Source: a virus (Duplodnaviria; Caudoviricetes). From it: DNA of 64,000 bases. Positions 56,770 to 57,329 of this stretch are shown here, in pieces. Position 1 is the first letter of the stretch; each line of letters starts with the position of its first letter. Both the position numbers and the translations under genes were made by a program. The stretch is from the IMG/VR virus record IMGVR_UViG_3300020037_001957, positions 1 through 64,000 of that record. One strand, 5' to 3'. The notes beneath the pieces are model-generated. The model made no database searches and was not told the DNA's origin. It was given only the letters and a program-made list of their open reading frames with translations.

Positions 56770-56907
56770 AGATAACGTTTTGCAGCTACCAGAAGGGCGG
56801 GATTTTAACAACAAAATAAACTTAGAAAGATGAACAATAATTTAACCACAAATGCTTCTAACGAAGCCGAAAGACCCGCCTTTTTGGTAGGTGCTGTTAT
56901 AGGTAGT
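56770..56907 (+). repeat. attC-like hairpin A
   Basis: ATAAC-GTTTT-GCAGCTACCAGAAGGGCGGG ... CCCGCCTTTTTGGTAGGTGC-T-GTTAT long imperfect inverted repeat; the loop contains ATG 56830. Confidence 0.75.
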
Positions 56908-57090
56908 ATTTTTAGGTGGGGTTTCAGAATTATAAACTGGAATCACTTTAGGATAAAAGCACATAATGGCAAACCAAGAATAAAGCGGATAATTAAATTG
57001 AAAGGATTTAGAACGGCTTTGATTGAAGAATATAATGGTAACAGATGTACTTCTCGTTTTTACTGGCGGGTCGGCAAATATTACCTATAA
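56830..57090 (+). CDS. Cassette 1 protein (leader from hairpin A fused to the cassette body)
   Basis: Codon 23 (GTT) lies at the putative crossover 56896; the TAA stop lies inside the TAAC of hairpin B. Confidence 0.6.
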   Translation: MNNNLTTNASNEAERPAFLVGAVIGSIFRWGFRIINWNHFRIKAHNGKPRIKRIIKLKGFRTALIEEYNGNRCTSRFYWRVGKYYL

Positions 57091-57235
57091 CGGTTTGCGG
57101 CTAAACTCTCGTTATTTTTAAACACTAAAAACTAAATAATATGGCAGGAATTAATTTTACAGATGAACGTGAATATGCACCTAAACTCAAATTTAAAAAT
57201 AATGGAGTTTTAGCTGCTGTTATAAGTTCGGTTTG
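57080..57235 (+). repeat. attC-like hairpin B
   Basis: ATAAC-GGTTT-GCGGCTAAACTCTCGTTATTTTTAAA ... TTTAAAAATAATGGAGTTTTAGCTGC-T-GTTAT; the loop contains ATG 57141. Confidence 0.75.
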
Positions 57236-57329
57236 CGATTGTGAACCACACACTTTTTATGAATGGGAAAAGGATGAGAATAAATGTAGTCAATGTGGTA
57301 AACCGATATACGAGCAAACTGACTTATAA
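57141..57329 (+). CDS. Cassette 2 protein, small Zn-ribbon-like (CxC...CxxC)
   Basis: Codon 27 (GTT) lies at crossover 57219; CDC and CSQC; the TAA stop lies inside the TAAC of hairpin C. Confidence 0.6.
   Translation: MAGINFTDEREYAPKLKFKNNGVLAAVISSVCDCEPHTFYEWEKDENKCSQCGKPIYEQTDL

Follow-up and report, generated by a model that had tools for sequence, protein, structure and literature searches.

Genes that appear to start inside attC-like hairpins: a probable integrase-less integron-type array in the early operon of a Bacteroidota phage

We find that positions 56772-57711 of the phage DNA analysed here probably form a small integron-type array without an integrase, placed in the early/replication operon and made up of three units, the third of them decayed, with leaders that run in frame into the coding bodies behind them (we put the probability of this reading at about three in four). 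The window, i.e. the whole stretch of DNA that was analysed, covers the first 64 kb of a virus record that is complete at 77,625 bp and has direct terminal repeats. Its G+C content is ~37%; the structural genes are on the minus strand, and an early/replication block that includes a DnaB-type helicase (58071-59468) is on the plus strand. The source is a phage of Bacteroidota, and the small hairpin-started genes sit in its early/replication operon. The features of the locus are:

56383-56754, plus strand: left flank of the insertion, a conserved 123-aa phage gene with homologs of 55-60% identity in L268, L269 and L270.
56772-56900, plus strand: attC-like hairpin A, long class, ~128 nt (from its fold, the family alignment and covariation).
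56830-57090, plus strand: ORF1, 86 aa, with its start in the loop of hairpin A and GTT as codon 23.
56896-56909, plus strand: 5' half of the body 1 inverted repeat, GTTA and 10 nt, pairing at 13/14 positions with 57078-57091.
57078-57091, plus strand: 3' half of the body 1 inverted repeat, 10 nt and TAAC, containing the ORF1 stop.
57087-57223, plus strand: attC-like hairpin B, ~136 nt, with the ORF2 ATG in its loop (from its fold and a motif scan).
57141-57329, plus strand: ORF2, 62 aa, with its leader in hairpin B and GTT as codon 27.
57219-57330, plus strand: body 2 and the 9-nt inverted repeat that belongs to it, 57219-57227 pairing with 57322-57330 (9/9).
57326-57410, plus strand: degenerate third site C, with TAAC at 57327-57330, weak arms and GTTA at 57406-57409.
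57471-57704, plus strand: ORF3, 77 aa, the third inserted gene, with its own ATG ~60 nt past site C.
57719-58069, plus strand: right flank of the insertion, a conserved 116-aa gene with a homolog in L270, followed by the DnaB helicase gene (58071-59468).

The limits of the insertion come from comparison with related phages. In L270, the homolog of the left-flank gene directly abuts the homolog of window 57719-58069; because the flank genes are adjacent there, we take window 56755-57718 to be an insertion. ORF3 and both of the units that precede it are missing from L270. By the same comparison, the inserted block has a hairpin first and a body, then TAAC, last, and the terminal TAAC (57708-57711) that ends the insertion follows ORF3. 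A further relative, L268, has different cassettes at the same place. Megablast of 55000-60000 against cultured phages gave no match, and no tyrosine recombinase is encoded in the complete 77.6-kb genome.

Hairpins A and B are 315 nt apart and have a common base, in which TAACG, a 4-nt bulge and an arm form the 5' side, and an arm and TGTTA form the 3' side. The TAAC and GTTA elements are at 56773-56776 and 56896-56899 in hairpin A, and at 57088-57091 and 57219-57222 in hairpin B. Beyond this base, the distal stems of A and B differ in sequence in a compensatory way. The plus strand folds better than shuffled sequences both as RNA (z of -4.3 for A and -3.6 for B) and as DNA (z of -3.2 for A and -2.3 for B), whereas the minus strand has no better fold than its shuffles (DNA z of -1.2 for A and -1.1 for B). 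The DNA folding energies of the plus and minus strands are -20.3 versus -13.7 kcal/mol for A and -15.0 versus -12.2 kcal/mol for B. The strict 5'-arm motif occurs at two places only in the 77.6-kb genome, namely A and B, with 0.18 expected; a relaxed motif scan of the whole genome found no more copies of the A/B type. At site C, the DNA fold has a z of -3.0 on the plus strand and -2.7 on the minus strand, i.e. the strand bias is absent. The sequence 3' of the TAAC of site C resembles that 3' of the last, recombinase-adjoining TAAC in L051, L083 and L244 (see below).

An Rfam search of 54000-60000 with E values up to 10 matched neither hairpin, its sole match being a tRNA at 59646. A ribozyme or riboswitch was considered as an identity for the hairpins and rejected, both for the lack of Rfam support and because the strand asymmetry persists where the mRNA corresponds to the opposite strand.

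The loop of hairpin A consists of an A-rich leader and the ORF1 ATG. An earlier note on this DNA had placed the ATGs at 56830 and 57141 in hairpin loops after an A-rich stretch, which both the sequence and the folds confirm, and had read the GTT of the crossover core as a whole codon (codon 23 in ORF1 and codon 27 in ORF2). The sequence bears this out too: the GTTs are at 56896-56898 and 57219-57221, both within GCT-GTT-ATA. The bodies were likewise correctly described as start-less near their 5' ends, there being no in-frame ATG or GTG after the GTT in either body 1 or body 2; the first TTG of body 1 is codon 57. At the other end, the ORF1 stop is the TAA of the TAAC of hairpin B (57088-57090), and the ORF2 stop (TAA, 57327-57329) is inside TAAC 57327-57330. 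Judged from the sequence alone, translation would begin at the loop ATGs. The body of ORF2 is a 32-aa CxC...CxxC module. Pfam and PHROGs gave no family for ORF1, ORF2 or ORF3. When the sequence of hairpin A was read by eye, no promoter box of the Bacteroidota type was seen.

Complementarity that extends beyond the core within a unit is the hallmark first used to define the boundaries of integron cassettes. The inverted repeat of body 1, which includes one G.T pair on the plus strand, was the only one found at 1 mismatch in a scan of the whole genome for inverted repeats, while pairs with 2 mismatches were at shuffle level. The ends of body 2 are identical in L265, L266 and L267. In the ORF3 unit the inverted repeat has decayed (9/14). 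The 3' flank of hairpin A is complementary to the 5' flank of hairpin B at 9/10 positions, versus 2/10 for its own 5' flank. Across loci, the mean flank match (of 10) is 4.8 with the next hairpin, 3.2 with the hairpin's own flank and 3.1 at random; hairpins <500 nt apart have flank matches of 7-9/10, against the random mean of 3.1. A downstream partner of the 3' flank was found within 3 kb for 74 of 110 elements (14-mer, with up to 2 mismatches). In rows of 6-8 units in L109, L083 and L022, the hairpin length is constant and the arm sequence varied. The G.T pair in the unit repeat is conserved on the plus strand. A MITE or transposon was also considered and rejected: each unit has different terminal repeats, the target is not duplicated, and a limited annotation revealed no transposase.

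Hairpins with this 5'-arm motif are found well beyond the window, at >115 viral and >120 genome loci, with the matching 3' arm mostly at 125-129 nt. The viral hairpins fall into two length classes, one of ~50-95 nt, which has no ATG, and one of 125-129 nt. We aligned 65 distinct hairpins with different stems, hairpin A among them, and obtained a consensus of 24 pairs. Compensatory double changes occur at 18 of these 24 stem pairs, and this covariation supports the hairpin fold. TAACG and TGTTA are invariant in 65/65 hairpins and are paired in the consensus fold. The family site has its 4-nt bulge on the AAC arm only, together with one 1x1 mismatch, and phage and bacterial copies both keep G.U pairs at two positions of the stem. 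The family, the covariation, the invariant core and the unit-specific end repeats all agree with the earlier description of the hairpins as attC-like.

The bacterial copies occur in many Bacteroidota genomes, are mostly exactly 127 nt long, and delimit units of 400-900 bp with coding on the opposite strand. Of the bacterial units, 16/19 have minus-strand coding, and a loop ATG is present in none of those 16; no viral unit is clearly coded on that strand, and 28/36 viral units have a loop ATG. The position of the ATG is also constrained. A loop ATG in the frame of the GTT, with at least 25 open codons, was found in 37 of 56 distinct long hairpins, compared with 3/56 for frame +1 and 0/56 for frame +2; the reading phase across the core is fixed. 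The genes would also take their start codon and some 20-26 leader codons from the hairpin loop, and here the earlier note is supported as to the origin of the start.

Near-identical copies of hairpin A with other flanks are present in L028, L048 and L073. Metagenome contigs from four studies have breaks at the bases of the hairpins, and the word depth is ~4-8 in the flanks and ~300-900 at hairpin A, a rise of roughly 40-200x that says nothing on excision and fits a module common to many genomes. One metagenome contig joint skips 56913-57076.

Long arrays are also found in a cultured phage. In the Flavobacterium phage vB_FspS_hemulen6-1 (L239, MN812208) there are at least 11 consecutive units, each bounded by its own GTTA...TAAC repeat, at 745-5832. 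The annotated DNA methyltransferase CDS gp014 of this phage (L239:3055-3897) has its start in a hairpin loop and its end at the TAA of a TAAC. The repeats are unmentioned in the paper describing hemulen6-1.

In four viral or viral-like contigs (L109, L051, L083 and L244), a gene for a tyrosine recombinase of 264-281 aa lies on the gene strand 50-125 nt past the last TAAC. Homologous recombinases adjoin arrays in Pedobacter glucosidilyticus DSM 23534, in Algoriphagus halophytocola and in the metagenome-assembled contigs L174 and L192. These proteins have 34-42% identity, with invariant catalytic residues. Scored against the NCBIfam integron integrase model TIGR02249, the recombinases of the relatives reach 148-213 bits, below the cut-off of 265; alignment to IntI4 (2a3v) is in two stretches, with ~40-50 residues skipped; and the best solved relatives are XerA/XerC-like. 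By these sequence comparisons, the array recombinases classify as Xer-like enzymes without the IntI-specific insertion. The recombinase and an attI-like, non-hairpin array end are always on the TAAC side. At L244:3426-4226, a row of 10 or more small genes on the plus strand, one of them an ORF1 homolog, is followed by a 266-aa Xer-like recombinase, so that array and enzyme form a complete locus on this 162-kb contig, which may be of phage or host origin.

We compared homologs of the two bodies. The earlier note had suggested testing whether the N-termini of body homologs vary and switch exactly at the Ala-Val-Ile junction, and this is what we found for both bodies, with individual leaders recurring on unrelated bodies. 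The ORF1 body has 21 homologs at E below 1e-20, which cover 84-100% of the query, many with >80% identity, and which between them have at least 7 different leaders, the switch being just before A-V-I-G-S. Leader A is present on at least 6 unrelated bodies. At the DNA level, the ORF1 body (196 bp) was found in five contexts, with three kinds of hairpin upstream and five different sequences downstream; identity is limited by GTTA at one end and TAAC at the other. For the ORF2 body we counted at least 15 unrelated N-terminal parts, 40-60 residues long, again with the switch at Ala-Val-Ile, and leader B is found on other bodies. In-frame recombinants of heads and bodies are thus real, and common for bodies 1 and 2.

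The N-terminal part can be longer than in the window. At L267:1150-1353, the arms of a ~200-nt hairpin are complementary and its enlarged loop encodes ~50 residues before an ORF2-type body; sites of the hairpin family can house entire N-terminal parts. In L266 (about 1141-1350), an ORF2-type body follows an N-terminal part of similar length, but complementary arms are not evident there. The protein P0017 (107 aa, from a 73.8-kb contig) is an ORF1 homolog with a 3-residue leader; in place of its C-terminal end it has the 3' arm of a different hairpin followed by another body, apparently because a deletion brought two units together in frame.

Since both frame anchors sit in the conserved core, any hairpin joined at the core to any body stays in frame. 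The chimeric hairpin at L246:2408-2561, 5' of an ORF1 homolog, has a 5' arm of another type and a 3' arm of the A type, and its arms are unpaired. The crossover in L246 would thus lie inside the loop, indicating that ordinary homologous exchange within hairpins occurs too. Such exchange is insufficient, however, because the junctions of the chimeras share only about 5-7 nt. The natural chimeras may have come from the other strand recombining, from paired crossovers, one at each core, or from microhomology.

The polarity of the sites bears on where a crossover would fall. The plus strand of the window is the attC bottom (folding) strand: it is the more stable, with G.T pairs, and the bacterial genes are on the other strand. 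In attC sites, it is the bottom strand that folds better and has more G:T pairs (Nivina 2016, PMC5027507). Because the plus strand is the bottom strand, a canonical crossover would be at TAA|C in the 5' arm. The earlier note had proposed that reshuffling at G|TT would always give in-frame fusions. The fixed phase and the combinatorial fusions stand; the crossover, given the bottom-strand polarity, is probably not at a plus-strand G|TT.

The same polarity is seen in what related contigs have in common. L090 and L105 have exactly a hairpin and a body in common, with TAAC as the left bound and TAACG as the right bound, and the sequences of L052 and L041 diverge at TAACG. Where pairs of homologous bodies keep one neighbour, this is the upstream hairpin in 7 cases (~3 events) and the downstream hairpin in 0. 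Because the insertion starts with a hairpin, the breakpoints are at TAAC and the upstream hairpin is co-kept, we conclude that a unit normally owns its start. The proposal that each unit is a start-less body plus the start of the next gene is not supported by the body-last order of the insertion, by the TAACG breakpoints or by this count of 0 versus 7. The upstream hairpin is not constant, being of 3 types in 5 contexts of the ORF1 body and nearly always different for the ORF2 body, and with such variation bodies 1 and 2 are a poor fit to a simple rule by which the hairpin travels with the gene. The downstream hairpin differs in 5/5 contexts of the ORF1 body and in 4/4 of the ORF2 body, and nothing indicates that a body moves together with it. 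Re-joining at GTTA is an additional event, and a frequent one for bodies 1 and 2.

We propose the following model. Hairpins A and B would be recombination sites of an attC-like family specific to Bacteroidota, and each of the three units would comprise a hairpin site and a small gene. In bacterial arrays the genes run opposite to the folding strand and have their own starts. In phages they lie on the folding strand, with the predicted start and 20-26 leader codons in the variable loop, a fixed phase of GCT-GTT-A across the core, and a stop at the TAA of the next TAAC. Units would move by site-specific recombination of the folded strand, presumably via the Xer-like recombinase of related phages or host chromosomes, which here would act in trans or have acted in the past. 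Crossovers would normally fall at TAA|C, so that the unit would be a hairpin and its own gene. In-frame re-joining at GTTA would be a rarer second route, by microhomology exchange or by recombination of the other strand, which has been seen at low frequency in some attC sites (PMC5027507). A bolder statement, which we hold tentatively and at somewhat less than even odds, is that the loops are exchangeable start or N-terminal modules, that the GTTA/TAAC cores are universal in-frame splice points at the DNA level, and that the system as a whole is an unrecognised sister of the integron served by a Xer-like recombinase. If true, Bacteroidota phages would move accessory genes by a site-specific system and with it also build new small proteins from heads (20-60 residues) and bodies.

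These data can be set against other explanations. A plus-strand crossover at G|TT of the 3' arm would instead make the unit a start-less body together with the downstream hairpin that carries the next start. Such a unit would explain why the bodies are without a start of their own, why there are many upstream leaders per body with junctions exactly at GTTA, and why leader A is on several bodies. We nevertheless consider it unlikely: the downstream hairpin is never the conserved partner, the inserted block is hairpin-first and body-last, the clean breakpoints are at TAACG, and the recombinase and the attI-like end are on the TAAC side. Moreover, the plus strand has the marks of a bottom strand, where cleavage falls in the AAC arm.

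A less probable explanation still is that the hairpins are regulatory linkers similar to the PeSLs of other phages, with ordinary homologous or relaxed recombination by phage genes at the arms and no site-specific enzyme. PeSLs are a precedent for modular shuffling at conserved stem-loops (PMC2839356, PMC4122927); the genes just downstream of the array include matches to an exonuclease, a NinB/Orf-like mediator and a RusA-like resolvase, there is no integrase here, and the chimeric hairpin of L246 has its crossover inside the loop. Against this, hairpins that belong to different sequence classes have their junctions in only 4-7 common nt (TAACG, TGTTA), too little sequence for homologous exchange. 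Linkers of this kind would also leave unexplained the 14-bp unit-specific end repeats with their conserved G.T, and they sit badly with a dedicated tyrosine recombinase that is repeatedly found beside the arrays and with the same sites in opposite-strand bacterial arrays. We give the least credence to a role in mRNA only, in which the hairpins would be translation insulators, RNase sites or terminators and the resemblance to cassettes a by-product. The mRNA-sense strand does fold best, with G.U pairs, and a start codon in an open A-rich loop suits the initiation of translation in Bacteroidota, which does without a Shine-Dalgarno sequence. Yet the bacterial arrays keep the strand asymmetry although the mRNA there is the other strand, and the presence or absence of whole units among relatives, together with the adjoining recombinases, points to a role in DNA and makes an exclusively RNA-level function very improbable. 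In phages the hairpins may have an added effect in RNA besides their role in DNA.

The arrays have a series of likenesses to integrons and their attC sites, especially the homogeneous ~123-126-nt VCRs of sedentary chromosomal integrons. In both there are single-gene units between imperfect AAC...GTT hairpins; core flanks that are complementary within the unit and not within the hairpin; one strand that folds better, with G.T pairs; a uniform, long-class site length; and a tyrosine recombinase at one end of the array. The differences are that the recombinase of the hairpin family is Xer-like and without the IntI-specific insertion, that a one-sided 4-nt bulge, with the 1x1 mismatch, may stand in for the central spacer, unpaired on both arms, and for the extrahelical bases on the arm facing the AAC triplet that attC sites have, and that the core repeat is 14 bp and not 7; in addition, the phage genes are on the bottom strand, start in the loop of the site and end in the next core, and there is re-joining on the GTTA side. 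An integron cassette gene is on the top strand, upstream of its attC and usually with its own start, an arrangement that the bacterial members have and that the window and the viral loci do not. A CALIN is defined by at least 2 close attC sites and no integrase, and A and B, with the degenerate C, are such a group in a complete genome that lacks an integrase.

In the excerpted text of Qi et al. 2023 (PMC9892861), 17 CALINs are reported among sequenced phages, virulent ones included, with one in a Polaribacter (Bacteroidota) phage. That text and our data have in common attC-type sites and cassettes in integrase-less lytic phages, and DNA methyltransferase cassettes; starts within the site, a fixed phase, leader-body chimeras and a phage-borne Xer-like recombinase are not described in those excerpts (PMC9892861). 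Among phages, the nearest analogue of shuffling at stem-loops is the PeSL motifs of T4-type phages. They are similar in being conserved stem-loops that flank small accessory early genes in hyperplastic regions and coincide with the limits of insertions, deletions and replacements, and different in that they are intergenic promoter-terminator units thought to undergo homologous exchange (PMC2839356, PMC4122927). They are also without a start codon or leader, unit-specific end repeats or a dedicated recombinase.

Links between recombination sites and translation have precedents in integrons. The stem-loops of attC reportedly impede ribosomes, and a short ORF in attI1 is said to supply translation initiation to cassettes (observations attributed to Jacquier et al. 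2009 and Hanau-Bercot et al. 2002). The likeness is that a recombination site influences or supplies the initiation of a cassette gene. The difference is that those effects concern top-strand mRNA and coupling, and not an in-frame, attC-encoded leader fused to the cassette protein. Integrons have been reported to be nearly absent from Bacteroidetes. In the part of the literature covered, we came across no account of genes whose starts lie within attC-type sites on the folding strand, none of a constant reading phase through the core, and none of arrays with Xer-like recombinases in Bacteroidota or phages.

Integrons are regarded as bacterial, as rare in Bacteroidota and as sporadic in phages, and a cassette is taken to be a whole gene without a promoter. 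In the hairpin family described here, the logic of the integron would govern how many Bacteroidota phages, cultured Flavobacterium phages among them, organise their accessory early genes; in these phages the gene orientation is the opposite one, and the recombination site itself would encode the start and the front end of the protein. This would be a concrete case for site-specific, in-frame shuffling of proteins. It could explain the exchange of small early genes of unknown function and of DNA methyltransferases among these phages, and it offers a new angle on the origin of attC sites and cassettes. Gene callers and integron finders probably miss hairpin-started genes or mis-assign their starts.

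Three further observations concern the surroundings of the array. Just 3' of the DnaB gene there is a tRNA gene on the plus strand (59646-59739; Rfam RF00005, 36.1 bits, E of 6e-5). A recombination module also lies 3' of DnaB, at 60162-62835 in the window and at L118:3635-4246. Its genes are exonuclease-like (60162-61175), a member of PHROG 862 (function unknown; 61533-62381) and a NinB/Orf-like mediator (62382-62834), and a match to a RusA-like resolvase at about 63634-64245 of the genome belongs to the same module. Finally, on the other side of the array, 53013-53074 contains two 25-nt direct repeats that are 92% identical and 37 nt apart, beside the start of the minus-strand gene 52271-53014.
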